This document shows, one piece after another, positions 7,137 to 57,979 of a DNA stretch of 64,000 bases (positions within the stretch are counted from its first letter, which is position 1; each line of letters starts with the position of its first letter). The notes under the pieces are model-generated. The model saw nothing but the letters and a program-made list of their open reading frames with translations. It had not been told where the DNA came from and ran no database searches. The translations under genes were made by a program, and so were the position numbers. The DNA comes from Candidatus Heimdallarchaeum aukensis. GTDB taxonomy: Archaea; Asgardarchaeota; Heimdallarchaeia; Heimdallarchaeales; Heimdallarchaeaceae. Where the stretch lies: the NCBI GenBank assembly GCA_021513695.1, contig CP084166.1, positions 352,001-416,000 of the forward strand, given 5' to 3'.

Positions 7137-7270
7137 TAACTTATTATTTTAGATTTTTGAATATAATAAACTTAAAAACCATGATTCATAATTTAGCATA
7201 TCTTAAATGTTAATATTAAGTAACTCAAGATAAATTTTTAACTTCCATGGGTTCTTAATTTTGTAAAAAA

Positions 7271-36347: not shown

Positions 36348-36998
36348 ATGAAAAAGTCTTCTGAAAAAATAATTTTGACTATTTGTTATAATAACGAGGA
36401 AACATGTGATAGTTGTTCTCTTTTTGGTAATTTAATGTGTAAGTTAGATCACAAAGACTCGATTATATTTATTTGGCCATTTTTAACAATGATTGGCCTT
36501 TTAACTGCAGGTATTGTAATAACAAGAGTAAAGGTTGGTACTCCTTGGTGGGCAATAATTACTTTCATAGGGGTATATTTTCTGTATATGCTTTTTTTCT
36601 TTAACATCTGGGAAAGTAAGATTCTCTGCAGTCATTGTCCTTTCTATATTATCGACGATTCAAAGATTCTAAAATGTTATGCGAATTATGGTTTCTTAAA
36701 AACAGCTAAATACAACCCTGCACCCATTTCTAAATCTGAGCAAATACAGTTTTTAATAGGAGCTTTGTTGCTTTTTTTTATTCCGATAACTTTTCTTTTG
36801 ATTATTCAGAACTTTCTTTTTGCAGGGTTAGTTTCTTTAAGCACAATAATCTTTTTTGTTAATACTATGAATACTTCTTGTAAGAAATGTCCTAATTTCT
36901 CTTGTATCCTAAATAGGGTTCCTGAAGAGTGGAAAGAAGAATATTTTAAAAAGAATGAACTTATGAAAAAAGCATGGGAAGAAAGCAAACAAAAGTAA
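36348..36998 (+). CDS. Cys-rich integral membrane protein (putative metal-binding; CxxC-type pairs)
   Basis: 216 aa. Cys clusters TCDSCSLFGNLMC, CSHCPFY and CKKCPNFSC flank four hydrophobic helices. Confidence 0.45.
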   Translation: MKKSSEKIILTICYNNEETCDSCSLFGNLMCKLDHKDSIIFIWPFLTMIGLLTAGIVITRVKVGTPWWAIITFIGVYFLYMLFFFNIWESKILCSHCPFYIIDDSKILKCYANYGFLKTAKYNPAPISKSEQIQFLIGALLLFFIPITFLLIIQNFLFAGLVSLSTIIFFVNTMNTSCKKCPNFSCILNRVPEEWKEEYFKKNELMKKAWEESKQK

Positions 36999-37082: not shown

Positions 37083-38525
37083 ATGAGCATTGTAAAAAAA
37101 ACAAATAAAAAGAATGTTTTTCTATTTAGTTTCTACGACATTGCTAATACAGTTTATTCACAAGTTATACAAAGTACAATTATTTTGCGTTATATTCAAA
37201 TTATAGGTCAAGTAGAGAATGGAATGACTAAAGATCAAGCCTATTTTGTTTTTACCACAATTCAAGCTTTGAGTCAAATTTTAGTTGTTGCTCTCATTCC
37301 TCTTTTTGGAGCAATGATGGATAGAGCTGGTAGAAAAAAACCTTTTGTACTTACTATCACTGGAATTACTTTAATTAGCACTTCCCTTTTCTGGATTAAG
37401 AAGAGTATAGCTGTTGTGATGACGCTTTTTATTTTAGCGAACCTCGCTTATTGGGCTGCTCTTGCCGCTTATGATGCGATGATACCTTCTTTGGCTGCAG
37501 AAAAAGATATTGGTAAGACTTCAGGGATAGCAATGGGTTTAGGTTGGGTTTCTATAATTCCCGCTATAGGAATAACTATACTTGCTAATTCTCTTTGGGG
37601 ACAACCAAACGCTGACCCCAATCAAGGACCAGTTGTTTATGGTTATTATGCTAACCCTTGGACATATATTATGACTGTAGGTTTGTTTATTCTATTCTTA
37701 ATACCATTCTTGTTCACAAAAGAAAAAGCTAAACCTGGCGAGTTTCCTAAATTTAAGGAGTTACTAAATGATTCATTTGGAGAACTCTATCGTACCTTTA
37801 GAGATATTAGAAAACATAAAGAGATGTTCAAATTCATAATTGGCTACTTCTTCATTGTTGACATGGCCAACACAGCAAATATCATCCTCTTAGATGTTCT
37901 TAGAGATGCAATAGGTTTTCCTGAAAGTCAAAGTCTAATACTCCAGCTTCCTGTAGTCTTTGCAGCTATATTTGTTATTCCTATAATTGGTTGGATGGGT
38001 GATAAATTTGGTGCTAAAGCAACAGTATGGACTGTAGGAGCACTATATATTACAGGACTTATTTCAGGAATATTTGCTATATGGTATGGTAAGAAATCTG
38101 TCTCTCCTGGACTAACATTAATGTTCATTCTTACTTTCGTTATGATGATCTGTGTAGGTATAGGTTTAGGTTCAACGTGGGTAGTTCAAAGGGTAATGAT
38201 ACTAAAACTTGCTCCACCAGAAAAAGTAGGTGAATACGTGGGTTTCTCTTACATTGCAGGGAGATTGAACGCTTCTGTGGCGATTTTTATCTGGGGAGGA
38301 ATAATTAAGGTGTTCTATCCTATTTTCAATGCTAAAGGGTATGATTATCGAACTTATTCTGTAGGACTACTATTCTTGCTCTTTTTACTAGTTGTAGGAA
38401 TGGTAATAACATTCTTCGTTAAAATACCCACAGATGAAGAAAGAAAGAAGTGGGCAGAGGATTATATAAATAAAGGAATGAAAACACAAACTGAACTAGA
38501 AAAAGAGCAGATGAAGAAATCTTGA
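37083..38525 (+). CDS. MFS transporter
   Basis: 480 aa, about 12 TM helices. Motif MDRAGRKKPF after TM2. Confidence 0.7.
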   Translation: MSIVKKTNKKNVFLFSFYDIANTVYSQVIQSTIILRYIQIIGQVENGMTKDQAYFVFTTIQALSQILVVALIPLFGAMMDRAGRKKPFVLTITGITLISTSLFWIKKSIAVVMTLFILANLAYWAALAAYDAMIPSLAAEKDIGKTSGIAMGLGWVSIIPAIGITILANSLWGQPNADPNQGPVVYGYYANPWTYIMTVGLFILFLIPFLFTKEKAKPGEFPKFKELLNDSFGELYRTFRDIRKHKEMFKFIIGYFFIVDMANTANIILLDVLRDAIGFPESQSLILQLPVVFAAIFVIPIIGWMGDKFGAKATVWTVGALYITGLISGIFAIWYGKKSVSPGLTLMFILTFVMMICVGIGLGSTWVVQRVMILKLAPPEKVGEYVGFSYIAGRLNASVAIFIWGGIIKVFYPIFNAKGYDYRTYSVGLLFLLFLLVVGMVITFFVKIPTDEERKKWAEDYINKGMKTQTELEKEQMKKS

Positions 38526-38651: not shown

Positions 38652-39692
38652 ATGAGGATTCTACAGAATAAAAAAAATAAAATCCTAGTTATCTTTACTT
38701 TTACGGTCTTTTGTTTAATGTTTGCTTACAACATTGTGGGAAAACCCACAAAAGATGAAAATGCAATGCTTTATTCTTATCAGAACATGTTAATCGTTCG
38801 ATATCACGATATAAGAGTAGATATTAGTTCTGTAGATGAGATTTTATGTAAGGAATCTTTTATTATTGAAAACTTTGAAAATAGTAGTCTTGACACAATT
38901 CCTTTGTGGTTCAATTATTCTATTAGTTCAATTAAAATTAAAGACATTAACGGTTCTCTTCTCTATAATTGGAAAGTTGTTGAAACTAATTCTAACTTTG
39001 TAGAAGTTTATTTAAGGAAAAACATAACATTACATGAAATTGCTTCCTTTTCGGTAGAATATGAACTGTTAAAAGATATTCCTCTGATACCAGCAGAAAA
39101 AAATTATTACTTATTTGAGTTTTATACATCTATTACCTATTCAACATCTGTATTAAATGTGGAGTTTTCTCTACCTGAAAATAGTTTTATTCATCAGAGT
39201 GATGAATCAATTTATCCAAACAATGGAGTACAGAAAATAAATTATAATAGAATAACTGTTTCATGGCAAAGCAATAATGTAAGTGCTTTCTCTAATCCCT
39301 TATTTTATGCTAAGTTTAACGAGCCCATAACTGTTGAAGAAAAACAAGGTTTTTTTGAAAAAGCTCTTAATCTTTTTCTTTCTGGTTTATTACTTGGCTT
39401 TTTCTTGGGTATAAGTTTTCTTTCTTGGTTTGCAAGATATAAAGAAAAAAGAGCAAAGAAGCAACTAGGTTTAACTCTTCTAGATGAAAATCAAAAAGAA
39501 TTGATTAAAATAGTTTATGAACACAATGGAAAAATAAGTCAGAAAGAAATGTGTACAGTTACAGGTTTTTCTAAATCAAAGATTAGCAGAAATTTGATTC
39601 CTTTAGAAAAAAGAGGGCTGATTTACAGAGAAAAATGGGGAAGAACATATGTTATCCACCTTACTAAAGAAGGAAAAACAGTTATTGAGTAA
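38652..39692 (+). CDS. Membrane-anchored transcription regulator: extracytoplasmic domain, then a TM helix, then a C-terminal cytoplasmic winged HTH (MarR/TrmB-like)
   Basis: 346 aa. N-terminal anchor ILVIFTFTVFCLMFAYNIV. About 200-aa extracytoplasmic region. Second TM LFLSGLLLGFFLGISFLSWF followed by RYKEKRAKKQ. wHTH region LTLLDENQKELIKIVYEHNGKISQKEMCTVTGFSKSKISRNLIPLEKRGLIYREKWGRTYVIHLTKEG. Confidence 0.55.
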   Translation: MRILQNKKNKILVIFTFTVFCLMFAYNIVGKPTKDENAMLYSYQNMLIVRYHDIRVDISSVDEILCKESFIIENFENSSLDTIPLWFNYSISSIKIKDINGSLLYNWKVVETNSNFVEVYLRKNITLHEIASFSVEYELLKDIPLIPAEKNYYLFEFYTSITYSTSVLNVEFSLPENSFIHQSDESIYPNNGVQKINYNRITVSWQSNNVSAFSNPLFYAKFNEPITVEEKQGFFEKALNLFLSGLLLGFFLGISFLSWFARYKEKRAKKQLGLTLLDENQKELIKIVYEHNGKISQKEMCTVTGFSKSKISRNLIPLEKRGLIYREKWGRTYVIHLTKEGKTVIE

Positions 39693-39821
39693 AACAAATG
39701 AAATTATAGATAGCAAATTCTTGTAGACTAGTTACTTTTTCAATTTTAGTTTCTAATTTCCTTTATTTGTTTATTTGTTTATTATAGGCCGTGATTTTAT
39801 ATGATTGTAAGTTTTTCAAAT

Positions 39822-39876
39822 CGTTTCACTTTTGTTTCACAAGTCATGCAACCGTTTCTATACTGTTTCACTTTTG
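39822..39876 (+). promoter_or_regulatory. Two direct repeats of GTTTCACTTTTG (plus a degenerate third copy, CGTTTCTATAC) about 45-100 nt upstream of the surface-protein gene
   Basis: Direct reading: tcgtttcacttttgtttcac ... accgtttctatactgtttcacttttgatg. The repeats are spaced 42 bp apart, centre to centre. Confidence 0.4.
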
Positions 39877-39920
39877 ATGAATCCAACTTTTAATAAATCA
39901 TCATTTCAACATTTAATCAG

Positions 39921-41000
39921 GTGAAAAAAATGAACAAGAAACTAACCACATATTTGGCTATTACAGGAGTATTATTTTTAGTACTTATGAGTTCTTTACC
40001 ACTAACTTCTTTGGCTTACAAAGAAGATAATGTAAATGTAGGTAAAGATAATGGATCTTTTATTATTGATACTCCACTATTAAAAGTAAAGCTAATGGAC
40101 AATAAACCTGATATTATGTTCTGGATTGCAAACGATACTGATTCGAATAAAAGAAACCCTGTACCTGCTTATCACGTAGGATTCAACTATGTAACAGAGC
40201 TATTTGGAGATGATTTAGTAGTAGATAACAGAACTGAACTCGGTGGAAAATCATACAATTTAGCAGCAATTGATTGGACTTTAACAACTGAAAATTATAC
40301 TAACGAAATTGTTTCAACTTTAACTTCTGAGATTTTATCTAATGGTGCAACAATTAGTTTTATTTTCCATGTTTTCACAGAAGATACAACTGTTACAAGA
40401 GTATTAAATGATAGCACTACTGTGACCTATGATGTAAAAGCTCTCTCTGAAGTCAAATTTGATATTGTTGTTTCAAATTGGACCTTCACAGAAGGAGCAG
40501 TAGGATTAACTTTTATTACAACTATACATGAACTTGCATATAGACACAGAGTAAGGGCAGGAAATGCTACACATACCCAAGGTGAAACAGAAAATAGAAA
40601 CAGTACTGAAACCTATCCAAGCGATAAAAGAAATAATGACCCTGAAAGATGGGGTGTAGAATTTACTGATGAAAAAGGAAATCTACAAAGCTATTTTGCT
40701 TGGACACCAGAAGCTGATGTTTTTGATGCAGACGACAATTACTTAAAAACGGTAAACGTAACTGCCACTACAGCTGAGAAAGGTTTCAAAGAAACAGATC
40801 ACTTTAACAAAAGATTTGGAATTGATTACTTATTCCTCTACCTTACTTATCCAAATTACGGAGACAATTTAAAACTTGTACACGACCCAACAATTGGAGT
40901 AGTTGAAAGTACAGGCGGTATTTCATGGTCAACAACTGCATCAATAGTCTTACCTTTAGTAATCGTAGGTTTAATAGTAATAAATAGAAGAAGAAAATAA
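39921..41000 (+). CDS. Secreted surface protein with a C-terminal TM anchor and RRRK tail
   Basis: 359 aa. Signal peptide LAITGVLFLVLMSSLPLTSLA. C-terminus IVLPLVIVGLIVINRRRK. Confidence 0.55.
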   Translation: MKKMNKKLTTYLAITGVLFLVLMSSLPLTSLAYKEDNVNVGKDNGSFIIDTPLLKVKLMDNKPDIMFWIANDTDSNKRNPVPAYHVGFNYVTELFGDDLVVDNRTELGGKSYNLAAIDWTLTTENYTNEIVSTLTSEILSNGATISFIFHVFTEDTTVTRVLNDSTTVTYDVKALSEVKFDIVVSNWTFTEGAVGLTFITTIHELAYRHRVRAGNATHTQGETENRNSTETYPSDKRNNDPERWGVEFTDEKGNLQSYFAWTPEADVFDADDNYLKTVNVTATTAEKGFKETDHFNKRFGIDYLFLYLTYPNYGDNLKLVHDPTIGVVESTGGISWSTTASIVLPLVIVGLIVINRRRK

Positions 41001-41819
41001 TTATCCTTTTTCTTTCTTTTTACTTTTTTTCATTTTACTTAAACTTTTAGCGTATTCTAAAGCTTCTTTGTATCTTTCTATAGTCTCAACTTGTAATTCG
41101 TCATCTGAATCTAAATTGGAAATTTTTTCTCTTAAAGTTCTTATAAAGAGTTTGAGTTCATCATCAGGAAGTTCTTCAATTATTGTCTTCGCCAAAGAAA
41201 TATTAGCTGTATCGACATTCGGAATGTCTAATTCTAAAGGGTTTTTTTCCCATTCTTCTATAGAATAAGCTAATTGTTCTGTTCCTAAAAGATCTATTAT
41301 TTGATCAATCTTGAAAGGAACAAGTTCTTTAAATCTTTTAAAGGCATTAGCATATTTTTCACTTTCTGCAATCCTAGTTGCAAAAAATCTGTCTGTTGGA
41401 AACAGAATTTTGACAGCACTTAATACAAAAGTACCTGACTGAAAAATCAAAACTAATGAGTTTGCTTCTGTTGAGTTTTCATTTGGTGAGGATAGAAAAG
41501 CCTTTTCCAATCTCTCTTTGTTGGTTAGTTTCCATATTCTTCTTAATAACTTTATTTCAAAAGCTCCTTTTACCTTCTTATTTTTACTTTCAATGAATAT
41601 TATGTAATCTTTTTTTCTAATTGTTCCAGTGTAATTTTTCCTTAATTGAGTTAGATCTACTTCTTCTCCTTCTTCTTTCTTCTCTCTATAATAAAAAATA
41701 ATTTTCTTCTCACTACTAATGAAAGATTTTTTACTTTCAGTTACCTCTCTGTCTGTGTCTCTAAGAAGTAAAATCTTCTCAAGAATAAAAGGAAGATTTT
41801 CTTCAGAAACATCAATCAT
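41001..41819 (-). CDS. Hypothetical acidic cytoplasmic protein
   Basis: 272-aa ORF with no recognisable motif. Its stop abuts the stop of the convergent surface-protein gene. Confidence 0.4.
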   Translation of the reverse strand: MIDVSEENLPFILEKILLLRDTDREVTESKKSFISSEKKIIFYYREKKEEGEEVDLTQLRKNYTGTIRKKDYIIFIESKNKKVKGAFEIKLLRRIWKLTNKERLEKAFLSSPNENSTEANSLVLIFQSGTFVLSAVKILFPTDRFFATRIAESEKYANAFKRFKELVPFKIDQIIDLLGTEQLAYSIEEWEKNPLELDIPNVDTANISLAKTIIEELPDDELKLFIRTLREKISNLDSDDELQVETIERYKEALEYAKSLSKMKKSKKKEKG

Positions 41820-45374: not shown

Positions 45375-47255
45375 ATGGTAAAATTAGAATTAACAGAACC
45401 AATAGGAATATTAGCAGAAGGAGATATCTCATCGTTAAAAGTGATATCAAAGGATATTAGATATCAAGTTGGTGAAATATTAATTATCACCCATCCTGAA
45501 ACTCCGGAAATCTATTTGTTTCGGGTGATGAATTATGAAAATATTCTCCGATCAAGTTCTGATATGAGCTATGTTGCTTCAAATATTTTGAAAAACAGAA
45601 CAGCATATATTGCGAGGGTAGAAAATGAGAAAATGGTAAAAGTATCTGGAATCTTGATGGGTTACTCTCTTTATGATGAAAATAAGAAAAAGTGGATTCT
45701 ACATAAACCTCGCTCTCTCCCTCCTCATTTTTCATATGTTTATCGAGGGTCTGAGTGTAAAGCAGCCTTACAAGATCTCTTATGGTCAGAATTTGGTAAT
45801 GATATAGAAATAGGAAAATTACAAGTAGGTGCTACAACCTTAGATATCCCAATTAAACTAGATGTAGAAGCTCTTCCAATGCATGTACAAGTAGCAGGAA
45901 CAACAGGAGCAGGAAAATCTTTCTTCATGTTGACAATGATTACTTCAAGTCTTAAAAATAATGTAATTAACGCTTTAAAACCTTCAAAGGCAGATACTAT
46001 TAACAAGAAAATTTCTTTCTTCATGGTAGACGTACATGATGAATACATGAGAGGAATGAAAGAACCTGAAACAAATGCAAGATATGGTATAAAAGATATA
46101 GCTGAAGCAAGCTTAAAGCAAGATAAAGATATTTACAACCTTCTATTTGGAAAGAATTTCTATCTTACTTCTGATATGGAAAGTGTAGAAAAAGATATGC
46201 AAAAATATGCTAAAGCCTTACGTTTCAGACTTGAAGATATAGAGGTAAGTGATATCATTTCAGTAATGGAAGTCACAGATCAAATGGCTTCATTCATGTA
46301 TTGGATTAAATCTCATAATGAAAATTGGATTTCAACTATTTTAGAATTAGGAGAAGAAGATGATCAAGGAGGATTTTCTAAAGGGACAGTAAATGCAGTA
46401 AAAAGAAGGCTCAGGAGTATATACAACTCTCCTATTTTCAGAGAGTCGAGAACTATCACAACTTCTGATGAAAAAAATCAAGAACAATCAAGCGTTAGTT
46501 TTAGTGATTTAGCAGAAATAGTTTACAATTTAGAACAAGGACATTTCTATAATTTTAGTTCAGCACTATTAAGTTCGACAGAACAATTTATCGTTTTAAC
46601 TATGTTAGCAAGAACAATCTTTGCTTTAAGACAATCTTTAATGTCTTCTACAAGATGGTCTCAGTTTGAAAAACAAGTAGAGTCAAGATTACCAAGACAA
46701 ATAAGTAACGAATTGCTAGGAAAAACAAATTCTTCTTTTTCGATAAAGGATCTCTATATTAAAAATAAAGAAGGAAACGACTATATTCTTAAAAAAGTGA
46801 ATGAACTTCCTGTAATTCTTCTCACAATTGAAGAAGCTCCAAGTATTTTGGGAGTACAGATGTCTAAACAAGGAAATGTGTTCGTTGACATTAGTAGACA
46901 AGGAAGAAAGTTTGGAATAGGCATGTTACTTATTACTCAAAATATTTCAGCGATGGAACCTTTGATTTTAGCCAATACAAACACAGAAATAAACATGATG
47001 CTAGGAAATGAGATAGAGATAAAACAAGCAATCATCAACGCCAGTAACAACATTACAGGATACGAACATGAGTTTAGAGTATTAAACAGAGGTGAAGCTA
47101 TAGTTACTAACTCTTTACGCAATATTCCCATGCCTGTGAAGATACACAATGCACCAGTTTTAATTAAAGAAAATTTGTCTTTCTTTGAAAATCCTTATGA
47201 TAGTTTGAAAATAAAAAAAGAAAAAAGGATATCTAAAGATATTCCTCTTCTTTAA
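45375..47255 (+). CDS. herA: HerA-family (FtsK/HerA superfamily) hexameric DNA translocase/helicase
   Basis: 626 aa. Walker A VAGTTGAGKS. Candidate Walker B FFMVDVHDEY. Conserved C-terminal RQGRKFGIGMLLITQNIS (the HerA arginine-finger region). The N-terminal region before the ATPase core is consistent with a HAS barrel. Confidence 0.75.
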   Translation: MVKLELTEPIGILAEGDISSLKVISKDIRYQVGEILIITHPETPEIYLFRVMNYENILRSSSDMSYVASNILKNRTAYIARVENEKMVKVSGILMGYSLYDENKKKWILHKPRSLPPHFSYVYRGSECKAALQDLLWSEFGNDIEIGKLQVGATTLDIPIKLDVEALPMHVQVAGTTGAGKSFFMLTMITSSLKNNVINALKPSKADTINKKISFFMVDVHDEYMRGMKEPETNARYGIKDIAEASLKQDKDIYNLLFGKNFYLTSDMESVEKDMQKYAKALRFRLEDIEVSDIISVMEVTDQMASFMYWIKSHNENWISTILELGEEDDQGGFSKGTVNAVKRRLRSIYNSPIFRESRTITTSDEKNQEQSSVSFSDLAEIVYNLEQGHFYNFSSALLSSTEQFIVLTMLARTIFALRQSLMSSTRWSQFEKQVESRLPRQISNELLGKTNSSFSIKDLYIKNKEGNDYILKKVNELPVILLTIEEAPSILGVQMSKQGNVFVDISRQGRKFGIGMLLITQNISAMEPLILANTNTEINMMLGNEIEIKQAIINASNNITGYEHEFRVLNRGEAIVTNSLRNIPMPVKIHNAPVLIKENLSFFENPYDSLKIKKEKRISKDIPLL

Positions 47256-47288: not shown

Positions 47289-48570
47289 GTGAAATTAGTG
47301 GTAAAAATAGCTCATATGTCTGATACTCATTTATCACATAGAAGAGTAAGAAATGTTAGAGATAGTTGGAAAGAAAGATATAGAGTAAGTTGGATAGAGA
47401 ATGACTTTTCATTAGCTTTTCAAAGAGCTTTAGATGCAGCTATTGAAACTAAATGTGATTTTCTAGTTCATTCAGGAGATTTGTTTGATGTTCCTGTAAA
47501 AAGAAATACAACTTCACCTTCTGAATATGCAAGAGCTATTGCAATAAGTGAAATAAGAAGATTTTTGGAAGCTACACATTTTAAAGTACCTATAATTATA
47601 ATTGATGGAAATCATGGAACTTATCTTTACAGGAATAATAGTACTATAGAATTCATAAAATCAGCTTTCCCTGAAAATGTGTTTATAGCCACAAATTATG
47701 ACCTTAAACGAGCAATAGTAAAAAATGAACCTTTGAAAGTAGAGTTTGAAGAGATTAACTTTTATCTGTTTCCTTATTTAGAATTCAAATCTATGGCTAA
47801 TTATGAAGAACTCTATGATGAATGGATAAGTAAATGCCAAGAGCCTGAAGACGGAAAAATTAATGTTGCAGTAGCTCACGGAATGTTTAGGAATTTGGAT
47901 TTGCATGAAAAATTATTCTCTTTTCCTTATGATTATGTAGCTTTAGGACACGATCACCAACAAAGAAAATATGCTCCAAACGCTTGGCAAGCAGGAAGTA
48001 CAGAAAAATATACCTTTGCTGAAAGAGGACAAGAAAAGTATTTTAGAAGTTATTATTGAGAAAGGAAAAAATTTACACATTAATCCAATAAAGGTTGTTA
48101 GCCAAAGAGAAATGAAACAATTCGAAGTAGAATTAAGTTCAGACATGAGTGCATTAACTGTAGAAGAAAAAATAAGAGAACTTGTAGCAAGTTATAGAAA
48201 GAACTTTGATGGAAACACAGCTGCGAGAATAAAAGTTAAGTTACAAGGAAAAACTTCTCTCTCCTACTGGTGGACAATAGAAGATCGTTTAGTAGAAATA
48301 CAGAAAAATGTTCTAACTGAAGAATATAACATCCTAGAATTTAGATGGGATGAAGAAGAGTTAAAGAAATCTATACCTCAAAGCCTAGCCAAAACACCAC
48401 AAATGGATCAATACCTAATTGAAGATCCAGTCAGGGATTTTGTAAATTATTTGAAAAACTTAGAAATAGATGATGAAGTAAAATTTGAACAATATGCAAA
48501 ACTAGGACCAGAAATAATTAAAGAGGTTTTTAGTGAAGGATTTATTTCTTCAAAGGAGGAGTTAGAATGA
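47289..48570 (+). pseudogene. mre11: mre11 copy 1, disrupted by a frameshift (split into ORFs 47289..48059 and 47971..48570)
   Basis: All Mre11 phosphoesterase motifs are present (DTHLS, GDLFD, GNHG, VAHG, GHDHQ). The reading frame changes at caagaaaag|tatttt (about 48036). Copy 2 has caagaaaaaggtatttt and a single 427-aa ORF. Confidence 0.8.
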
Positions 48571-50699
48571 AAATTCTTTGGATACACATGGAGAATTTTA
48601 AATGCTACCGCAATGAGAGGATTCCAGAAACAGGTATCCTTCCAAAAGGATTGATTTTTGTAGAGGGAGAGAATTCGGTAGGAAAAACTTCTTTGTTTGA
48701 TGCAATATATTACGCTCTTTTTTACGAACCTACAAAGGACAAAGCCATTTTAGGTACAAAAGATATGCTAGTAAAAAGAGGAGAAAAAGAGACTATCGTA
48801 GAAGTTGCTTTTGAAATAATGAATAAATACTTTGTAGTACAAAAGCAACATGGAATATCAACTCCTCTAAAAGTAGTTTTACTTCAAATTGATAGAGAGA
48901 TGGCTGAAAAAGGAGAATTAAAAAATCCCATTAAAATAGCAGAAGGACTAGAGGATGTAAACAAGAAATTGTTTGAACTATTAAATATCACAAGCGAAAG
49001 CGTGTTGAGCACTCTAATAGTAAATCAAGGAGAAGTGCAAAAACTAGCAGAAGCTAAAGGAGCAGAACTTAGAGATATAATTTACAAACTTTTTCATTTA
49101 GATGATATAAGAGAAAAGTTGAAACGTGTGATTAATAGAAAAATGGAGATTTTAGATGAAGAATGGGAAAAATACAAAATTGAGCGCACAACAGAGAATA
49201 TTCTTGAAGAAATTAAAGAAATAGAGATAGAGAAAGAAACGAAAGAGAAAGAGTTAGTAAAAGCAAAAAATGAACTGGAAAAAATAGAAGAGAAAATCTC
49301 TCAATATCCTAAACATGAAGATATTCAATCAATAAGCAATATTTTAACTCAAATACAGCAAACCAAAGAAACTATTTCTAAGCAAGAAAGAATAATTAAA
49401 CAAAAATCTGAAACTTTAGAAATCAAGGAACTAACACAAGAAGAAATAAAGGATAAAATCTTAGAAATAGAGAAGATTATTCAGAAAACTAACAATAACA
49501 TAGAAAATTTAAGAAACAAAAGAGATAAAGTCCAGAAAAAGTTGCATAGTCTCCAAAGAGATCTTGCTGAAATAAAAGAAAAAATCAAGAAACTAGAAAG
49601 TCATGAAGTAGGACATGAAGAAGATTTTACTTGCGAATTATGCGAACAAACGATGCCCTACTCGAAATTTAAGGAATTAGTAGAGAGTAAAAAACAATCA
49701 ATTACAAATATTGAATTAGGGATTAAGAAAAGAACTGCAGAAAAAAGAGAAGTAGAGAAACAAATTGAAAAAGAAAGCAATTATATTAATAAGCTAAAAG
49801 AACAAATTTTTTCACTTAATAATGTCAAAGATAGGCTAGATAATCTAGAGAATAACAAGAAAGAATTGGATAAAAAACAAAATAATTTAATAACACAACT
49901 TAAAAAATTCAAAGTCCAGACAGTTGATCAGCTTTCAAAGAAATATAATGTCGAAAACTTTGAGGAATTCTTTTCAATTATAAGTCAACTGAAATCTGAT
50001 AAAGCTAGTCTAAATGCATCAATAAGTCATCTAAATAAAACTATTGAAAAACTAAAACAAAGGAAAAATCAATTAGAAAAAGAAATAGACAAAAATAAGG
50101 AAAAGGAAGAGAAACAAGAGAGTATTCTTCAAGAACAAGCTGCACTAAAAGATGTAGAAGGTGTAGTTTCAAGTTTTATAGCTGAGGAGCTAATCTCCAA
50201 TAGATTGCTTGCAGGAATACAGCAGACAACTAATCCTAATATAAACTTGTTTACGAGAGGAAAATACTCAGAGATATATCTAGAAGCAACTACAAAGAAA
50301 ACTTTAAGGTTAAGCGTTTTAGACAAAGAAGAAGAATTCGTAAAAAATCAAGAGTTCCTTTCAGGAGGAGATAAAGCAGCTATAGGACTAGGATTGAGAT
50401 TAGGTATAAGCGAATTACTAAAACAAATTAGACCATTCAAAGATTCTCCTCATAATCCTCCAAGGATGGATATAATGATACTTGATGAGCCTTTGGGTTC
50501 ACTTGATAGTGAAAGAAGGAAAAAAGTTCTAGAAGGATTGTTGATACAGAAGAAATTCAGTCAAATATTTCTGATTACACATACAAATGTTAGAGAAGAA
50601 CTTCGAGCTCCTTCAATTCGAGTAAGTAGAACAGAAAAAGGTAGCTCTACAGCCTATTACCCTGCTCCAAGTAAAATAGAGTTAGAATCTGAAGAATGA
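48567..50699 (+). CDS. rad50: Rad50-family SMC-like ATPase (copy 1)
   Basis: 710 aa. Walker A GENSVGKTSLFDAI. Long central coiled coil with a CxxC zinc hook (CELC) near the mid-point (about residue 354). Signature LSGGDKAAIGLGLRL. Walker B IMILDEP. H-loop LITHT. The start overlaps the mre11 stop (ATGA). Confidence 0.8.
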   Translation: MKILWIHMENFKCYRNERIPETGILPKGLIFVEGENSVGKTSLFDAIYYALFYEPTKDKAILGTKDMLVKRGEKETIVEVAFEIMNKYFVVQKQHGISTPLKVVLLQIDREMAEKGELKNPIKIAEGLEDVNKKLFELLNITSESVLSTLIVNQGEVQKLAEAKGAELRDIIYKLFHLDDIREKLKRVINRKMEILDEEWEKYKIERTTENILEEIKEIEIEKETKEKELVKAKNELEKIEEKISQYPKHEDIQSISNILTQIQQTKETISKQERIIKQKSETLEIKELTQEEIKDKILEIEKIIQKTNNNIENLRNKRDKVQKKLHSLQRDLAEIKEKIKKLESHEVGHEEDFTCELCEQTMPYSKFKELVESKKQSITNIELGIKKRTAEKREVEKQIEKESNYINKLKEQIFSLNNVKDRLDNLENNKKELDKKQNNLITQLKKFKVQTVDQLSKKYNVENFEEFFSIISQLKSDKASLNASISHLNKTIEKLKQRKNQLEKEIDKNKEKEEKQESILQEQAALKDVEGVVSSFIAEELISNRLLAGIQQTTNPNINLFTRGKYSEIYLEATTKKTLRLSVLDKEEEFVKNQEFLSGGDKAAIGLGLRLGISELLKQIRPFKDSPHNPPRMDIMILDEPLGSLDSERRKKVLEGLLIQKKFSQIFLITHTNVREELRAPSIRVSRTEKGSSTAYYPAPSKIELESEE

Positions 50700-50775
50700 T
50701 TCTTTTTTCATTATCTTTATCTTTTTTGAGAATAATATTTATATCTAAAAATGGAAATGTTCTCTAGGGTTTGAA

Positions 50776-52146
50776 ATGATACCTGGAACACTTAGACCTT
50801 TACCAAAAAGATTAGCTAAAGTAAAAACAGAAGCTGAAAGGCTTTTTAGAGCAGTGGACTATGATTACGAGACTATTAAAGAAATACTAAAATCTAGTAA
50901 AAATTTTGAATTTGAAGAAATAAGAAGACAATATATTAATTGTATAAATCATCACATAAGAATAGTTCCACTCGTAAAAGAAGCAGATAAATTGTTAGTT
51001 AAATATTCAAGAGATCCACTTCTAAAAGAAATGGTTTTCAAACTATTTGATAAGTTGGAAAAATATGAATACAGATTGAATGGTGATATTCAACGACTTG
51101 ATACTATTTTAATGTCGAAAAGAAAAGAATACATCAATAAAACAATTCCACTAGTGAAATCAGAAATAAGAAGCAAGTTATCTTTCTTAAGAGACCTAGA
51201 TTTTGAGCAATTACTCGCTGACAGTGAAAAATATTCTGCTATTATTTCAGGCATCGTAGATCGTGTAAATATATTAAAAGACGAGTATCAAAAATTAATC
51301 GAAAATGCTCTTGAAAGCGCAGTAGAAGCTTATAAAGAGTTAAAAGAAAAACTAGACGAACTTGAAGATGAACTAAAAGAGTATGTTCTTATTCTTGCTA
51401 CTTGTAAGATGGAATTGCTAATTAACGATTCAAAAACTTTGCTTGAAGAAGGAGTTAAAATATTCGAACGTTTTGAATTAGAACAAACAACTGAACTCAT
51501 AGAAGAAGCACAAGAGTACCTAGAAAAAGCAAAACCAACTCTAAAAGAGATGAATGAATTAAAGGTAGATATTCCTAAAAAAGCAATGAAAAAGAGCTTT
51601 GAAACAAAATTCCGAGAATTAAGAAATAAATTCGAAGAAAATAAATTTACTCTAGATGAATTGATAAACAACATCGAAACTAGAAATAGGTTACTATCGA
51701 CAAATATTGAAAGAATTGATGCATTAAAAGAGCTAGCAAAATCAATGTCGAGTGACATCAAAGAAACAGGAGAAATATTAAAAATAAAAAGAATGGGTAC
51801 ATTTAAACTATACTTGAAAGAAAATCTTATTCCACACATGGAGTTGCAAGAAAATGGTATAGTAAAAATACCAAAGGCAGAAGAACTCACGGCAACTTTT
51901 ATAGATGAAATAATCTTGACTCTTGAAGATGTAGATAATAAAAATATAGTTAAGGACTGGTTCAATGCTTTTAGAGCAACAAAAGTAGGTAAGTGGATAT
52001 ATGAAACTTCAATCAAAATTAAAAATAAAATAGTAGACATAACAAAGAAGATTGTAAAAAAAACTAAAAAATGGATCCAAGAAATGAAAGAAAAAAGAGA
52101 ACAGAAAAAATCGCAAGAAAATCAACAAAAAGAAGAGAAGAAATAG
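50776..52146 (+). CDS. Uncharacterised 456-aa coiled-coil protein (copy 1), co-oriented immediately after rad50
   Basis: Highly charged sequence with heptad-like K/E/L content throughout. No enzymatic motif. Lysine-rich C-terminal tail. Duplicated with mre11-rad50. Confidence 0.6.
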   Translation: MIPGTLRPLPKRLAKVKTEAERLFRAVDYDYETIKEILKSSKNFEFEEIRRQYINCINHHIRIVPLVKEADKLLVKYSRDPLLKEMVFKLFDKLEKYEYRLNGDIQRLDTILMSKRKEYINKTIPLVKSEIRSKLSFLRDLDFEQLLADSEKYSAIISGIVDRVNILKDEYQKLIENALESAVEAYKELKEKLDELEDELKEYVLILATCKMELLINDSKTLLEEGVKIFERFELEQTTELIEEAQEYLEKAKPTLKEMNELKVDIPKKAMKKSFETKFRELRNKFEENKFTLDELINNIETRNRLLSTNIERIDALKELAKSMSSDIKETGEILKIKRMGTFKLYLKENLIPHMELQENGIVKIPKAEELTATFIDEIILTLEDVDNKNIVKDWFNAFRATKVGKWIYETSIKIKNKIVDITKKIVKKTKKWIQEMKEKREQKKSQENQQKEEKK

Positions 52147-52311
52147 CAACATTATGTGATTTTGTGTTTTTGTGTAAAAATTCTCTATTTTTTTGTTAAA
52201 TTTATTACTATATAATAATGAATACAAAAAGAAATTAGGTTGAAATTATATCATTCATTGAATTTTTGAAAAAATTTTTGCCAAAAAAAATAAATATTTA
52301 GTTATATATAT

Positions 52312-52542
52312 GTGGTATGTATTAAAATGACTTCAGATTCATCTTGTTATTGTATTGTAAGAATAACTTGGCCTAAATGGATAGTTGCAACTGGACAGAT
52401 AGCTTTAGGTATTGGAATACTCTTATTGATCATTTTTTCGATCTTTTACACAAAGACAAGTTGGGAAAATTTTTCGCTATACGGAATCTACGTGGGAGCA
52501 GGTTTTTTGCTACTTGGGGCACTAATTAGCTATAGTTACTAA
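52312..52542 (+). CDS. Small 2-TM membrane protein (copy 1). The last 5 codons are replaced by the duplication junction, so it ends ...LISYSY instead of ...LILSSNDW
   Basis: 76 aa, two hydrophobic helices. Its C-terminus reads into the herA 3' fragment at 52528. Confidence 0.4.
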   Translation: MVCIKMTSDSSCYCIVRITWPKWIVATGQIALGIGILLLIIFSIFYTKTSWENFSLYGIYVGAGFLLLGALISYSY

Positions 52543-52720: not shown

Positions 52721-54004
52721 GTGAAATTAGTGGTAAAAATAGCTCATATGTCTGATACTCATTTATCACATAGAAGAGTAAGAAATGTTAGAGATAGTTG
52801 GAAAGAAAGATATAGAGTAAGTTGGATAGAGAATGACTTTTCATTAGCTTTTCAAAGAGCTTTAGATGCAGCTATTGAAACTAAATGTGATTTTCTAGTT
52901 CATTCAGGAGATTTGTTTGATGTTCCTGTAAAAAGAAATACAACTTCACCTTCTGAATATGCAAGAGCTATTGCAATAAGTGAAATAAGAAGATTTTTGG
53001 AAGCTACACATTTTAAAGTACCTATAATTATAATTGATGGAAATCATGGAACTTATCTTTACAGGAATAATAGTACTATAGAATTCATAAAATCAGCTTT
53101 CCCTGAAAATGTGTTTATAGCCACAAATTATGACCTTAAACGAGCAATAGTAAAAAATGAACCTTTGAAAGTAGAGTTTGAAGAGATTAACTTTTATCTG
53201 TTTCCTTATTTAGAATTCAAATCTATGGCTAATTATGAAGAACTCTATGATGAATGGATAAGTAAATGCCAAGAGCCTGAAGACGGAAAAATTAATGTTG
53301 CAGTAGCTCACGGAATGTTTAGGAATTTGGATTTGCATGAAAAATTATTCTCTTTTCCTTATGATTATGTAGCTTTAGGACACGATCACCAACAAAGAAA
53401 ATATGCTCCAAACGCTTGGCAAGCAGGAAGTACAGAAAAATATACCTTTGCTGAAAGAGGACAAGAAAAAGGTATTTTAGAAGTTATTATTGAGAAAGGA
53501 AAAAATTTACACATTAATCCAATAAAGGTTGTTAGCCAAAGAGAAATGAAACAATTCGAAGTAGAATTAAGTTCAGACATGAGTGCATTAACTGTAGAAG
53601 AAAAAATAAGAGAACTTGTAGCAAGTTATAGAAAGAACTTTGATGGAAACACAGCTGCGAGAATAAAAGTTAAGTTACAAGGAAAAACTTCTCTCTCCTA
53701 CTGGTGGACAATAGAAGATCGTTTAGTAGAAATACAGAAAAATGTTCTAACTGAAGAATATAACATCCTAGAATTTAGATGGGATGAAGAAGAGTTAAAG
53801 AAATCTATACCTCAAAGCCTAGCCAAAACACCACAAATGGATCAATACCTAATTGAAGATCCAGTCAGGGATTTTGTAAATTATTTGAAAAACTTAGAAA
53901 TAGATGATGAAGTAAAATTTGAACAATATGCAAAACTAGGACCAGAAATAATTAAAGAGGTTTTTAGTGAAGGATTTATTTCTTCAAAGGAGGAGTTAGA
54001 ATGA
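52721..54004 (+). CDS. mre11: Mre11 nuclease (calcineurin-like phosphoesterase), intact copy
   Basis: 427 aa, uninterrupted. Motifs I-V: HMSDTHLSH, DFLVHSGDLFD, IIDGNHG, VAVAHG, ALGHDHQ. The C-terminal capping/DNA-binding domain is present. Confidence 0.85.
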   Translation: MKLVVKIAHMSDTHLSHRRVRNVRDSWKERYRVSWIENDFSLAFQRALDAAIETKCDFLVHSGDLFDVPVKRNTTSPSEYARAIAISEIRRFLEATHFKVPIIIIDGNHGTYLYRNNSTIEFIKSAFPENVFIATNYDLKRAIVKNEPLKVEFEEINFYLFPYLEFKSMANYEELYDEWISKCQEPEDGKINVAVAHGMFRNLDLHEKLFSFPYDYVALGHDHQQRKYAPNAWQAGSTEKYTFAERGQEKGILEVIIEKGKNLHINPIKVVSQREMKQFEVELSSDMSALTVEEKIRELVASYRKNFDGNTAARIKVKLQGKTSLSYWWTIEDRLVEIQKNVLTEEYNILEFRWDEEELKKSIPQSLAKTPQMDQYLIEDPVRDFVNYLKNLEIDDEVKFEQYAKLGPEIIKEVFSEGFISSKEELE

Positions 54005-56130
54005 AAATTCTTTGGATACACATGGAGAATTTTAAATGCTACCGCAATGAGAGGATTCCAGAAACAGGTATCCTTCCAAAAGGATTGATTTTTGTAGAGG
54101 GAGAGAATTCGGTAGGAAAAACTTCTTTGTTTGATGCAATATATTACGCTCTTTTTTACGAACCTACAAAGGACAAAGCCATTTTAGGTACAAAAGATAT
54201 GCTAGTAAAAAGAGGAGAAAAAGAGACTATCGTAGAAGTTGCTTTTGAAATAATGAATAAATACTTTGTAGTACAAAAGCAACATGGAATATCAACTCCT
54301 CTAAAAGTAGTTTTACTTCAAATTGATAGAGAGATGGCTGAAAAAGGAGAATTAAAAAATCCCATTAAAATAGCAGAAGGACTAGAGGATGTAAACAAGA
54401 AATTGTTTGAACTATTAAATATCACAAGCGAAAGCGTGTTGAGCACTCTAATAGTAAATCAAGGAGAAGTGCAAAAACTAGCAGAAGCTAAAGGAGCAGA
54501 ACTTAGAGATATAATTTACAAACTTTTTCATTTAGATATAAGAGAAAAGTTGAAACGTGTGATTAATAGAAAAATGGAGATTTTAGATGAAGAATGGGAA
54601 AAATACAAAATTGAGCGCACAACAGAGAATATTCTTGAAGAAATTAAAGAAATAGAGATAGAGAAAGAAACGAAAGAGAAAGAGTTAGTAAAAGCAAAAA
54701 ATGAACTGGAAAAAATAGAAGAGAAAATCTCTCAATATCCTAAACATGAAGATATTCAATCAATAAGCAATATTTTAACTCAAATACAGCAAACCAAAGA
54801 AACTATTTCTAAGCAAGAAAGAATAATTAAACAAAAATCTGAAACTTTAGAAATCAAGGAACTAACACAAGAAGAAATAAAGGATAAAATCTTAGAAATA
54901 GAGAAGATTATTCAGAAAACTAACAATAACATAGAAAATTTAAGAAACAAAAGAGATAAAGTCCAGAAAAAGTTGCATAGTCTCCAAAGAGATCTTGCTG
55001 AAATAAAAGAAAAAATCAAGAAACTAGAAAGTCATGAAGTAGGACATGAAGAAGATTTTACTTGCGAATTATGCGAACAAACGATGCCCTACTCGAAATT
55101 TAAGGAATTAGTAGAGAGTAAAAAACAATCAATTACAAATATTGAATTAGGGATTAAGAAAAGAACTGCAGAAAAAAGAGAAGTAGAGAAACAAATTGAA
55201 AAAGAAAGCAATTATATTAATAAGCTAAAAGAACAAATTTTTTCACTTAATAATGTCAAAGATAGGCTAGATAATCTAGAGAATAACAAGAAAGAATTGG
55301 ATAAAAAACAAAATAATTTAATAACACAACTTAAAAAATTCAAAGTCCAGACAGTTGATCAGCTTTCAAAGAAATATAATGTCGAAAACTTTGAGGAATT
55401 CTTTTCAATTATAAGTCAACTGAAATCTGATAAAGCTAGTCTAAATGCATCAATAAGTCATCTAAATAAAACTATTGAAAAACTAAAACAAAGGAAAAAT
55501 CAATTAGAAAAAGAAATAGACAAAAATAAGGAAAAGGAAGAGAAACAAGAGAGTATTCTTCAAGAACAAGCTGCACTAAAAGATGTAGAAGGTGTAGTTT
55601 CAAGTTTTATAGCTGAGGAGCTAATCTCCAATAGATTGCTTGCAGGAATACAGCAGACAACTAATCCTAATATAAACTTGTTTACGAGAGGAAAATACTC
55701 AGAGATATATCTAGAAGCAACTACAAAGAAAACTTTAAGGTTAAGCGTTTTAGACAAAGAAGAAGAATTCGTAAAAAATCAAGAGTTCCTTTCAGGAGGA
55801 GATAAAGCAGCTATAGGACTAGGATTGAGATTAGGTATAAGCGAATTACTAAAACAAATTAGACCATTCAAAGATTCTCCTCATAATCCTCCAAGGATGG
55901 ATATAATGATACTTGATGAGCCTTTGGGTTCACTTGATAGTGAAAGAAGGAAAAAAGTTCTAGAAGGATTGTTGATACAGAAGAAATTCAGTCAAATATT
56001 TCTGATTACACATACAAATGTTAGAGAAGAACTTCGAGCTCCTTCAATTCGAGTAAGTAGAACAGAAAAAGGTAGCTCTACAGCCTATTACCCTGCTCCA
56101 AGTAAAATAGAGTTAGAATCTGAAGAATGA
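54001..56130 (+). CDS. rad50: Rad50-family ATPase (copy 2; one Asp codon shorter, HLDIREK instead of HLDDIREK)
   Basis: 709 aa. Identical to copy 1 except for the in-frame 3-nt deletion. Confidence 0.8.
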   Translation: MKILWIHMENFKCYRNERIPETGILPKGLIFVEGENSVGKTSLFDAIYYALFYEPTKDKAILGTKDMLVKRGEKETIVEVAFEIMNKYFVVQKQHGISTPLKVVLLQIDREMAEKGELKNPIKIAEGLEDVNKKLFELLNITSESVLSTLIVNQGEVQKLAEAKGAELRDIIYKLFHLDIREKLKRVINRKMEILDEEWEKYKIERTTENILEEIKEIEIEKETKEKELVKAKNELEKIEEKISQYPKHEDIQSISNILTQIQQTKETISKQERIIKQKSETLEIKELTQEEIKDKILEIEKIIQKTNNNIENLRNKRDKVQKKLHSLQRDLAEIKEKIKKLESHEVGHEEDFTCELCEQTMPYSKFKELVESKKQSITNIELGIKKRTAEKREVEKQIEKESNYINKLKEQIFSLNNVKDRLDNLENNKKELDKKQNNLITQLKKFKVQTVDQLSKKYNVENFEEFFSIISQLKSDKASLNASISHLNKTIEKLKQRKNQLEKEIDKNKEKEEKQESILQEQAALKDVEGVVSSFIAEELISNRLLAGIQQTTNPNINLFTRGKYSEIYLEATTKKTLRLSVLDKEEEFVKNQEFLSGGDKAAIGLGLRLGISELLKQIRPFKDSPHNPPRMDIMILDEPLGSLDSERRKKVLEGLLIQKKFSQIFLITHTNVREELRAPSIRVSRTEKGSSTAYYPAPSKIELESEE

Positions 56131-56206
56131 TTCTTTTTTCATTATCTTTATCTTTTTTGAGAATAATATTTATATCTAAAAATGGAAATGTTCTCTAGGG
56201 TTTGAA

Positions 56207-57577: not shown

Positions 57578-57742
57578 CAACATTATGTGATTTTGTGTTT
57601 TTGTGTAAAAATTCTCTATTTTTTTGTTAAATTTATTACTATATAATAATGAATACAAAAAGAAATTAGGTTGAAATTATATCATTCATTGAATTTTTGA
57701 AAAAATTTTTGCCAAAAAAAATAAATATTTAGTTATATATAT

Positions 57743-57979
57743 GTGGTATGTATTAAAATGACTTCAGATTCATCTTGTTATTGTATTGTAAGAATAACTT
57801 GGCCTAAATGGATAGTTGCAACTGGACAGATAGCTTTAGGTATTGGAATACTCTTATTGATCATTTTTTCGATCTTTTACACAAAGACAAGTTGGGAAAA
57901 TTTTTCGCTATACGGAATCTACGTGGGAGCAGGTTTTTTGCTACTTGGGGCACTAATTCTATCAAGTAATGACTGGTAG
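57743..57979 (+). CDS. Small 2-TM membrane protein (copy 2, presumed original C-terminus)
   Basis: 78 aa. Identical to copy 1 up to residue 71. Confidence 0.4.
   Translation: MVCIKMTSDSSCYCIVRITWPKWIVATGQIALGIGILLLIIFSIFYTKTSWENFSLYGIYVGAGFLLLGALILSSNDW

Follow-up and report, generated by a model that had tools for sequence, protein, structure and literature searches.

A predicted membrane-tethered winged-helix regulator with an OST1-like ectodomain and its putative operator at a surface-glycoprotein gene of Candidatus Heimdallarchaeum aukensis

A 346 amino acid (aa) open reading frame (ORF) of Candidatus Heimdallarchaeum aukensis encodes a membrane protein that combines a predicted extracytoplasmic beta-sandwich related to OST1/ribophorin I with a C-terminal winged helix-turn-helix domain (wHTH). 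The gene is found at 38652..39692 (stop codon included) of the stretch analysed, which consists of 64,000 nucleotides (nt) of contig CP084166.1 and is called the window here; coordinates refer to the window unless a locus of another genome is named, and features are on the plus strand unless the minus strand is given. The protein is probably a membrane-tethered one-component transcription factor, which, to judge from the sequences compared, would control the adjacent surface-glycoprotein gene through helically phased half-sites. The ORF list, the homologues and an AlphaFold2 (AF2) model agree on the gene. There are 46 homologues, and every named one is from Heimdallarchaeota.

The original prediction described an ORF with a hydrophobic N-terminus, an ectodomain, a second transmembrane (TM) helix and a C-terminal wHTH, and this architecture is confirmed, with an ectodomain of about 190 aa. 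The AF2 model, based on an alignment of 30 homologues, has a mean predicted local distance difference test (pLDDT) value of 84 and shows an N-terminal helix (residues 7–26), an all-beta sandwich (47–223, pLDDT mostly >90), a single long helix (234–274) and a winged helix (279–345). Hydropathy and charge count place a hydrophobic segment near the N-terminus, either a signal peptide or a signal anchor, at residues 11–29 (38682..38738). Four lysine or arginine residues precede it and, in the alignment of homologues, small residues end the hydrophobic stretch. The segment had been taken for an anchor; the hydrophobic stretch is present, but in the alignment it looks more like a cleavable signal peptide than a permanent anchor. 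The ectodomain, residues 45–232 (38784..39347), is followed by the TM helix at residues 236–260 (39357..39431), which is recognised from invariant alignment columns, hydropathy and an hhalign match to OST1-like proteins. A glycine zipper, G245-x3-G249-x3-G253, is invariant in this helix; glycine zippers are typical mediators of helix-helix association. Next to the membrane is a basic linker, ARYKEKRAKKQLGLTL, residues 261–276 (39432..39479), with six lysine or arginine and one aspartate or glutamate residues, modelled by AF2 as an extension of the TM helix.

Hydropathy scanning of the regulator gives TM segments at residues 11–29 and 239–257. The 15 residues past the second segment contain six lysine or arginine and one acidic residue, and the 15 residues before it contain one or two lysine or arginine and three to five acidic residues, an asymmetry shared by essentially all 30 homologues. 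The density of N-X-S/T sequons is 2.5 per 100 aa in the middle domain vs 0.12 in the C-terminal domain. In addition, the middle domain and TM helix are collinear and homologous with the lumenal domain and TM helix of OST1, a type I membrane protein. Because of the charge asymmetry, the sequon distribution and the collinearity with OST1, the beta-sandwich is predicted to be outside the cell and the wHTH in the cytoplasm, i.e. the regulator appears to be a single-pass type I protein. The original prediction, a sensor outside and an HTH inside, in a topology opposite to that of ToxR and CadC, thus agrees with hydropathy, charge bias, sequon density and OST1 collinearity; the sensor is N-terminal, the wHTH is C-terminal, and the protein gives no Trans_reg_C match.

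The cytoplasmic wHTH, residues 277–346 (39480..39689), is MarR-like and matches DUF7343 (PF24034) over residues 279–337 with an E-value = 7.5e-12 and 45.4 bits, against a gathering cut-off of 27.6. DUF7343 is matched by 30/30 aligned homologues. Weaker Pfam matches of the regulator are MarR_2, HTH_24 and MarR, of which MarR and MarR_2 score under cut-off. The domain shows the three helices and beta-hairpin wing of a winged-helix fold, and structure comparison finds a resemblance to DNA-binding MarR domains. The wHTH is the best-conserved part of the protein: the family shows little or no variation in the recognition helix (SKSKISRNL) and the wing (REKWGRTY), and ectodomain identity among homologues falls to 23–50%. 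The helices that form the canonical MarR dimer interface were looked for around the wHTH and are absent; about 70 residues follow the linker, with a lone short helix (339–345) after the wing and, ahead of the domain, only the TM helix. A search of Protein Data Bank (PDB) sequences with the regulator profile found MarR wHTH domains only, together with weak spurious matches to haemagglutinin HA2.

A profile of the ectodomain alone was searched against 1.84 billion representative proteins and gave 165 proteins at E up to 1e-3. The majority are 300–390 aa in length, those named being from Heimdallarchaeota and Wukongarchaeota, and 7/7 scanned from this size range carry a C-terminal DUF7343. A second group of about 540–640 aa, whose named members are Bathyarchaeota, consists of OST1-like proteins: 8/10 sampled reach the Pfam Ribophorin_I threshold, one is just under it (23.4 vs 25 bits) and one is unmatched. 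When the ectodomain is compared by hhalign with 16 of these OST1-like proteins, the probability is 98.7% and E = 3.6e-16. With the full-length OST1-like alignment, the match spans the second, membrane-proximal beta-sandwich and continues into the TM helix (196 columns), and the regulator aligns solely to columns 214–412. A structure prediction of the ectodomain had been proposed along with the original prediction; AF2 gives a beta-sandwich, and the best structural match is yeast Ost1. The relationship emerged only through profile search and profile-profile comparison, and none of 30 family members matches Pfam Ribophorin_I (PF04597) at E up to 5.

The sequence comparisons thus indicate that the regulator ectodomain has its origin in the membrane-proximal OST1/ribophorin I domain. 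A genuine Asgard OST1 has about 607 aa, with lumenal domains at residues 33–425 and, on the cytosolic side, a ribosome-binding bundle of four helices (PMC11417166). The regulator shares with OST1 a type I arrangement and a homologous lumenal beta-sandwich and TM helix; it differs in having a single sandwich (residues 47–223) where OST1 has two in tandem, and a wHTH in place of the cytosolic helical bundle. Because one lumenal domain and the TM helix are kept and the ribosome-binding bundle is replaced, the regulator is not an OST1 ortholog. The ectodomain profile also matches six to seven repeated stretches in P0164, a bacterial (Maribacter) Calx-beta protein of 1653 aa, and in P0173 (1188 aa). 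The Calx-beta match of P0164 is probably a generic similarity of beta-sandwich repeats and was not accepted as a true relative. These two proteins caution that profile matches covering merely the N-terminal half of the ectodomain are suspect.

Downstream of the regulator gene is the target gene at 39930..41000, which encodes a 356 aa type I membrane glycoprotein with a fold resembling that of GLMP, the eukaryotic glycosylated lysosomal membrane protein. The start had earlier been placed at GTG 39921. The start is most likely ATG 39930, because GGTGA at 39920..39924, 5 nt before this ATG, is the ribosome-binding site and the 356 aa product is 100% identical to K9W45_01515, a deposited protein of Candidatus Heimdallarchaeum aukensis. 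GGTG is found at the same place in orthologs. The regulator-to-target spacer is thus 237 nt and not 228 nt.

The spacer carries two exact copies of GTTTCACTTTTG, at 39823–39834 and 39865–39876, 42 base pairs (bp) apart start to start, as originally predicted. A search of the 64-kb window for further copies of this repeat, which had been suggested earlier, finds these two and nothing further, even with one mismatch. The degenerate third copy noted earlier turns out to be one of several: GTTTCAC at 39834–39840, GTTTCT at 39854–39859 and an inverted TGCAAC at 39847–39852. Same-strand cores in the spacer have offsets of 0, 11, 31 and 42 bp and, because of these offsets, would lie on one face of the helix. 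The distal tandem, GTTTCAC-N4-GTTTCAC (39823..39840), consists of one half-site at 39823 and another at 39834, a spacing of 11 bp, and forms the conserved core. An inverted half-site follows at 39847..39852 (minus strand; TGCAAC on the plus strand, GTTGCA on the minus). The proximal pair (39854..39871), 31 bp downstream of the distal pair, consists of GTTTCT (39854) and GTTTCAC (39865), again 11 bp apart. A putative B recognition element (BRE) and TATA box of the target gene, AATCCAAC TTTTAATAAA, are found at 39880..39897. Elsewhere in the window, half-sites cluster in two weak groups of three within longer ORFs (14156 and 15976); neither has a tandem at 10–12 bp, and the spacer cluster is unique in the window.

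The closest locus in another species is that of the closed Ca. H. endolithica genome (81% identity). The spacers of the two species are mostly diverged, with islands of conservation at the distal tandem, CGTTTCT, the BRE/TATA region AATCCAACTTTTAATAAAT and the ribosome-binding site. The distal tandem differs by 1 nt, and equivalent tandems are found in orthologous spacers. The inverted half-site is not kept in H. endolithica (TACAAT); similarly placed inverted copies are present in most orthologous spacers. At the proximal pair CGTTTCT is kept and the 39865 copy is GTTTTAT, so that the second exact 12-mer reads GTTTTATCGTTG. The BRE and TATA box are the same at 18/18 nt. Thus the repeats themselves stand, but the 42-bp pair stressed earlier is partly species-specific and is not the conserved unit; the conserved feature is the 11-bp tandem.

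A scan with one genome per species gave 32 loci, almost all labelled Heimdallarchaeota. In 27/32 of them a homolog of the downstream protein (41–87% identity) is encoded immediately 3′ of the regulator gene on the same strand, and the regulator-to-target spacers of orthologs are mostly 90–120 nt. GTT[T/G]C[A/C] is present two or more times in 28/28 orthologous spacers. The usual layout consists of two tandem copies 10–11 bp apart, starting 1–5 nt past the regulator stop codon in about 16 loci (1–18 nt in most), then at least one inverted copy, and then a TATA-like element (CATATA; TTTAATAA in the window). This element is 30–38 nt before the start codon in orthologs, and GGTG precedes the start codon. 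The presence of the repeat motif in orthologous promoters had been set beforehand as a test of the original prediction, and the motif is present in every orthologous spacer at the same position.

Half-site density is 26 per kb in the orthologous spacers vs 2.5 per kb in the other 280 kb of these loci and 2.8 per kb in other non-coding sequence (19.7 kb), a 9–10-fold enrichment. The regulator-to-target spacers, 3.4 kb in all, have 20 same-strand pairs at 10–12 bp vs 15 in 318 kb elsewhere, or about 120-fold. Six or seven of these 15 outside pairs are upstream of nearby secreted-protein genes or of the second surface-protein gene of locus L031. Further GTTGCA/GTTTCA tandems are situated at about 7360 in L009, 7262 in L010, 7226 in L013, 7224 in L016, 8367 in L004 and 9444 in L021. 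The extra tandems front genes for secreted, C-terminally anchored proteins, one or two genes past the pair, suggesting that some genomes have a small regulon in this neighborhood. At the position where other loci have these additional tandem-preceded genes, the window carries a convergent gene.

Distant paralogs of the regulator in loci L029, L030 and L031 are followed by other secreted proteins, with a C-terminal anchor in the L030 and L031 products. These are not homologous to the target in the window. The paralogous genes nevertheless show GTTGCA/GTTTCA repeats directly after their stop codons. In L031, paralogous genes encoding secreted proteins of about 398 aa with a C-terminal anchor are situated on either side of the regulator gene (3309–4508 and 6022–7218); each has tandem GTTTCA/GTTGCA repeats ahead of it, together with the same ATATTTAATG TATA-like box. 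By eye only, these flanking proteins are Kelch-like. In L033 (2921–7455) and L034 (1–4092) the order is surface protein, regulator, surface protein, regulator and then a hydrolase; on this gene order, the surface-protein/regulator pair has been duplicated as one block. The regulator gene of L035 is followed by that for a protein of >970 aa containing thrombospondin-type repeats.

Wherever the half-site reads GTTKCA, the recognition helix does not vary. In L034, from a distant subfamily whose helix reads SKSK[IV]SQIL and not SKSKISRNL, the same position (1724–1790) shows three copies of cttGAACCat at 10–11 bp, followed by TTTAAAATAA. L033 has a comparable but less clear AAACC repeat, and reading it as an alternative repeat is tentative. 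The half-site thus changes together with the recognition helix in the loci compared, with the layout constant. The original prediction saw in the repeats the binding sites of a dimeric wHTH protein. Conservation, enrichment, the paralogs and the covariation support the predicted sites; nothing indicates the dimer.

Chance low complexity, a terminator of the regulator gene or a structured RNA (a 5′ untranslated region or small RNA) might account for the repeats instead of protein binding. When the 228-nt spacer is simulated with a Markov-1 model, a direct repeat of 12 nt or longer turns up in about 4% of cases, so the exact 12-mer pair is marginal when taken alone; and in most orthologs the repeats begin 1–5 nt past the regulator stop codon, i.e. 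in the 3′ end region of that gene. The repeat nevertheless goes beyond chance because it is conserved in other genomes: the half-site is kept across otherwise unalignable spacers, with the enrichment given above for half-sites and for tandems. The spacer gives no match close to any Rfam family's gathering score and its folding is no better than that of shuffled sequences (z = +1.18); RNA explanations were rejected on these two results. In addition, the repeats are upstream of the TATA box and hence outside the target transcript. That the repeats are something other than protein sites is thus highly improbable.

Certain wHTH domains bind RNA or proteins. A different reading of the fusion is an OST1-like paralog working at the translocon or the oligosaccharyltransferase (OST), its wHTH docking nucleic acid, ribosomes or proteins, with another, soluble factor binding the repeats; the homology of ectodomain and TM helix to OST1, whose cytosolic domain is a ribosome binder (PMC11417166), is in its favor. 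It does not explain, however, why the repeats follow the regulator family beside non-homologous targets, or why they change along with the recognition helix. The conservation of the wHTH above the rest of the protein, with recognition helix and wing invariant, and its fold, that of DNA-binding MarR domains, also argue against it. Moreover, there is one regulator gene per target and the pair is duplicated as a unit, as for a dedicated regulator. An OST1-like role of this kind is quite unlikely.

In the favored reading, a membrane-tethered regulator of the adjacent gene, the signal sequence would place the OST1-derived beta-sandwich outside the cell. The glycine-zipper TM helix probably mediates oligomerisation, and the TM helices would hold the wHTH units together in parallel. 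The 16-residue basic linker would hold the wHTH, MarR-like and minimal, up against the membrane on its cytoplasmic side, where the wHTH units are predicted to bind the GTT[T/G]CA array, with its 10–11-bp spacing, on one face of the DNA. Because the array sits just upstream of its BRE/TATA, the adjacent gene would be the one whose transcription is controlled. The ectodomain would supply the input. The target protein itself is a candidate ligand because of the tight evolutionary coupling of the regulator to one surface-protein family. By analogy with OST1, what is sensed would most likely be a protein or glycan, as a feature of the cell envelope or of the machinery for secretion and glycosylation; descent from OST1 also makes such a partner at the membrane surface a more probable ligand than a small molecule.

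Several points weigh against this reading. In the model the wHTH is only about 16 residues from the membrane, so that the promoter must reach the membrane, and the canonical MarR dimerisation helices are missing from the modelled structure. The exact 12-mer pair, taken alone (p about 0.04), is weakly significant. The covariation of half-site and recognition helix comes from two related loci, L033 and L034, of which L033 is weak, and the loci as a whole are phylogenetically related, so that the counts are not independent trials. Finally, no half-site cluster or tandem pair is found upstream of any regulator gene in the loci scanned; autoregulation through the same sites is therefore unsupported.

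The short basic linker makes access to DNA at the membrane sterically demanding, a difficulty that would disappear if the membrane-bound form were inactive and a signal at the ectodomain led to proteolysis in or near the TM helix, freeing the soluble wHTH to bind the repeats, as in the regulated intramembrane proteolysis of eukaryotic ATF6, SREBP or Notch. Notch has a type I topology and a C-terminal effector, and the regulator recalls this arrangement. No protease gene is conserved beside the pair, however, and the fragment freed, about 85 aa and separated from the glycine-zipper helix, would be without an evident dimerisation surface. Furthermore, ToxR and CadC are active in the membrane-bound state, as is ArnR. 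Release by proteolysis is thus an unlikely route, and the regulator is expected to act while tethered.

As to the direction of control, activation is somewhat more likely than repression by analogy, because the sites precede the TATA box, an arrangement for which EarA and the ArnR boxes are precedents. EarA, a euryarchaeal archaellum regulator, is a wHTH activator that binds upstream of a surface-structure promoter, and BRE mutations bypass the need for it (PMC13286277). Its upstream site position matches that of the sites found here. EarA differs in being soluble, with no sensor or TM helix, and no relationship to the regulator is seen past the wHTH fold class. Against activation, a half-site abuts the TATA/BRE in some orthologs and is about 10 nt downstream in L010 and L016, an arrangement that fits repression too.

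Among membrane-bound one-component regulators, bacterial ToxR, CadC and TcpP are similar in that they unite a sensor outside the cytoplasm, a single TM helix and a cytoplasmic wHTH in one polypeptide, and the H. aukensis protein is likewise predicted to act membrane-bound. ToxR-type proteins are direct-repeat binders, and the tandem sites here are in helical phase. The order of domains is reversed, however; the wHTH is MarR/DUF7343-like and not of the OmpR/PhoB type, the sensor is unrelated, and the promoter, in an archaeal host, is of the TBP/TFB type. Members of the ToxR/CadC group have an N-terminal OmpR/PhoB-type wHTH, a TM helix and a C-terminal sensor, an arrangement the regulator does not show, so the similarity would be one of function and not of membership.

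ArnR and ArnR1 of Sulfolobus acidocaldarius are archaeal membrane-tethered one-component regulators of a surface-structure gene; both are membrane-bound activators that act through promoter boxes (PMC6396743). ArnR carries its HTH at the N-terminus, followed by a HAMP-like/sensing domain in the cytoplasm and by two TM helices at the C-terminal end, and it lacks an ectodomain (PMC6396743). The regulator does not share this architecture, and no sequence relationship is seen. CsmR of Haloferax was considered as a characterised relative and judged not relevant.

The target protein displays a signal peptide (residues 5–23), a TM helix (333–351), an RRRK tail and nine sequons in the ectodomain. The structural model is beta-rich, with pLDDT 83, and the ectodomain has a supersandwich form. 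Homologs are found in Heimdallarchaeaceae, Kariarchaeaceae, Gerdarchaeota and other Asgard archaea. Scans of Pfam and NCBIfam gave no match for the target, and its profile (38 sequences) gave nothing against PDB sequences at E up to 10. Two structure-comparison methods ranked GLMP first. Foldseek gives 6nyq_C with E = 6.7e-8, the next family having 2e-5, with TM-scores of just 0.44–0.50; further structural matches are galactose-mutarotase-like supersandwich domains, a widespread fold class. The published GLMP fold (PMC11252000) agrees with these supersandwich matches.

The target has the features of GLMP/NCU-G1, a type I arrangement with a glycosylatable beta-sandwich ectodomain and a short tail, and its fold is closest to GLMP. 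GLMP is the accessory subunit of the MFSD1 dipeptide transporter, and the target resembles it in being type I and multiply N-glycosylatable, with a C-terminal TM helix and a short basic tail. There is also a genomic likeness: a major facilitator superfamily (MFS) transporter gene, at 37083..38525 and with Pfam matches to MFS_1 and ATG22, is situated two genes upstream of the target. The target differs from GLMP in showing no sequence similarity to it, however, and the neighboring MFS gene, missing from many loci, shows no link that is specific to MFSD1. The MFS gene is directly upstream of the regulator gene in 11 loci (the window and 10 others) and absent elsewhere, including L033 and L034; as an obligatory partner it was rejected as a general rule. 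The MFS transporter profile gives nothing against PDB sequences at E up to 10, and the single sequence nothing at E up to 0.01. A sequence-level link to GLMP or MFSD1 is unsupported, since neither the target nor the MFS profile matches PDB sequences, and the GLMP likeness of the modelled target is a fold-level resemblance only.

Several other features of the window were observed. The convergent gene mentioned above (41001–41819, minus strand) encodes a 272 aa acidic, lysine-rich protein that faces the surface-protein gene; it shows no significant Pfam match and is kept in H. endolithica (89%) and in two other loci. An ORF of 216 aa at 36348–36998 displays an N-terminal cysteine-rich motif, CDSCSLFGNLMC, several hydrophobic segments and a C-terminal CKKCPNFSC, also with no Pfam match. 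Further downstream, 47569–52527 and 53001–57958 form a direct duplication of 4,961 nt with 99.9% identity and a period of about 5.43 kb. The duplicated unit contains a Metallophos (Mre11-like) gene, a 710 aa AAA_23 (Rad50-like) gene and a 456 aa gene of no assigned function, and is situated just downstream of a HerA-like DUF87 gene (45375–47255). This mre11-rad50 duplication is either a very recent tandem event or an assembly artefact.

The protein family itself is not new, since NCBI lists it as a ‘helix-turn-helix transcriptional regulator’ and Pfam holds the wHTH as DUF7343. What is new is the OST1 ancestry of the sensor and a type I class of archaeal membrane-bound regulators, as well as a defined predicted operator with its apparent covariation with the recognition helix and the conserved pairing with a GLMP-like protein. 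A search of the available literature library found no paper that mentions DUF7343 or joins ribophorin to an HTH domain in archaea, and nothing on the sensor ancestry, the type I class, the operator covariation or the GLMP-like pairing.

Membrane-bound one-component regulators have so far come from bacteria (ToxR, CadC) and from one archaeal case, ArnR. OST1 is a eukaryotic signature protein of Asgard archaea, and the regulator would be an OST1 paralog that has exchanged its ribosome-binding tail for a domain that binds DNA. Gene regulation is almost uncharted in Heimdallarchaeia, the lineage closest to eukaryotes, and the pair offers a rare, directly testable triplet of regulator, operator and target in this group. 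GLMP has so far been known only in eukaryotic lysosomes.

A more far-reaching version is a long shot: through its OST1-like ectodomain and TM helix the regulator may keep the place of OST1 at the Sec/OST (AglB) translocon, sense the load on secretion and N-glycosylation, or their capacity, or the folding of its glycoprotein client, and at once tether the promoter of that client to the membrane. If so, the steps from transcription and translation to insertion and glycosylation would be spatially coupled for the GLMP-like protein, and the regulator would be an Asgard-specific forerunner or analog of transcription factors tethered to the endoplasmic reticulum (ER) membrane and of ER-stress signalling. 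The GLMP-like target, possibly with the neighboring MFS transporter, would then be an unrecognised eukaryote-like membrane module. If either structural link, to OST1 or to GLMP, reflects function, the finding would bear on the origin, before eukaryogenesis, of surveillance of the envelope and secretory pathway.

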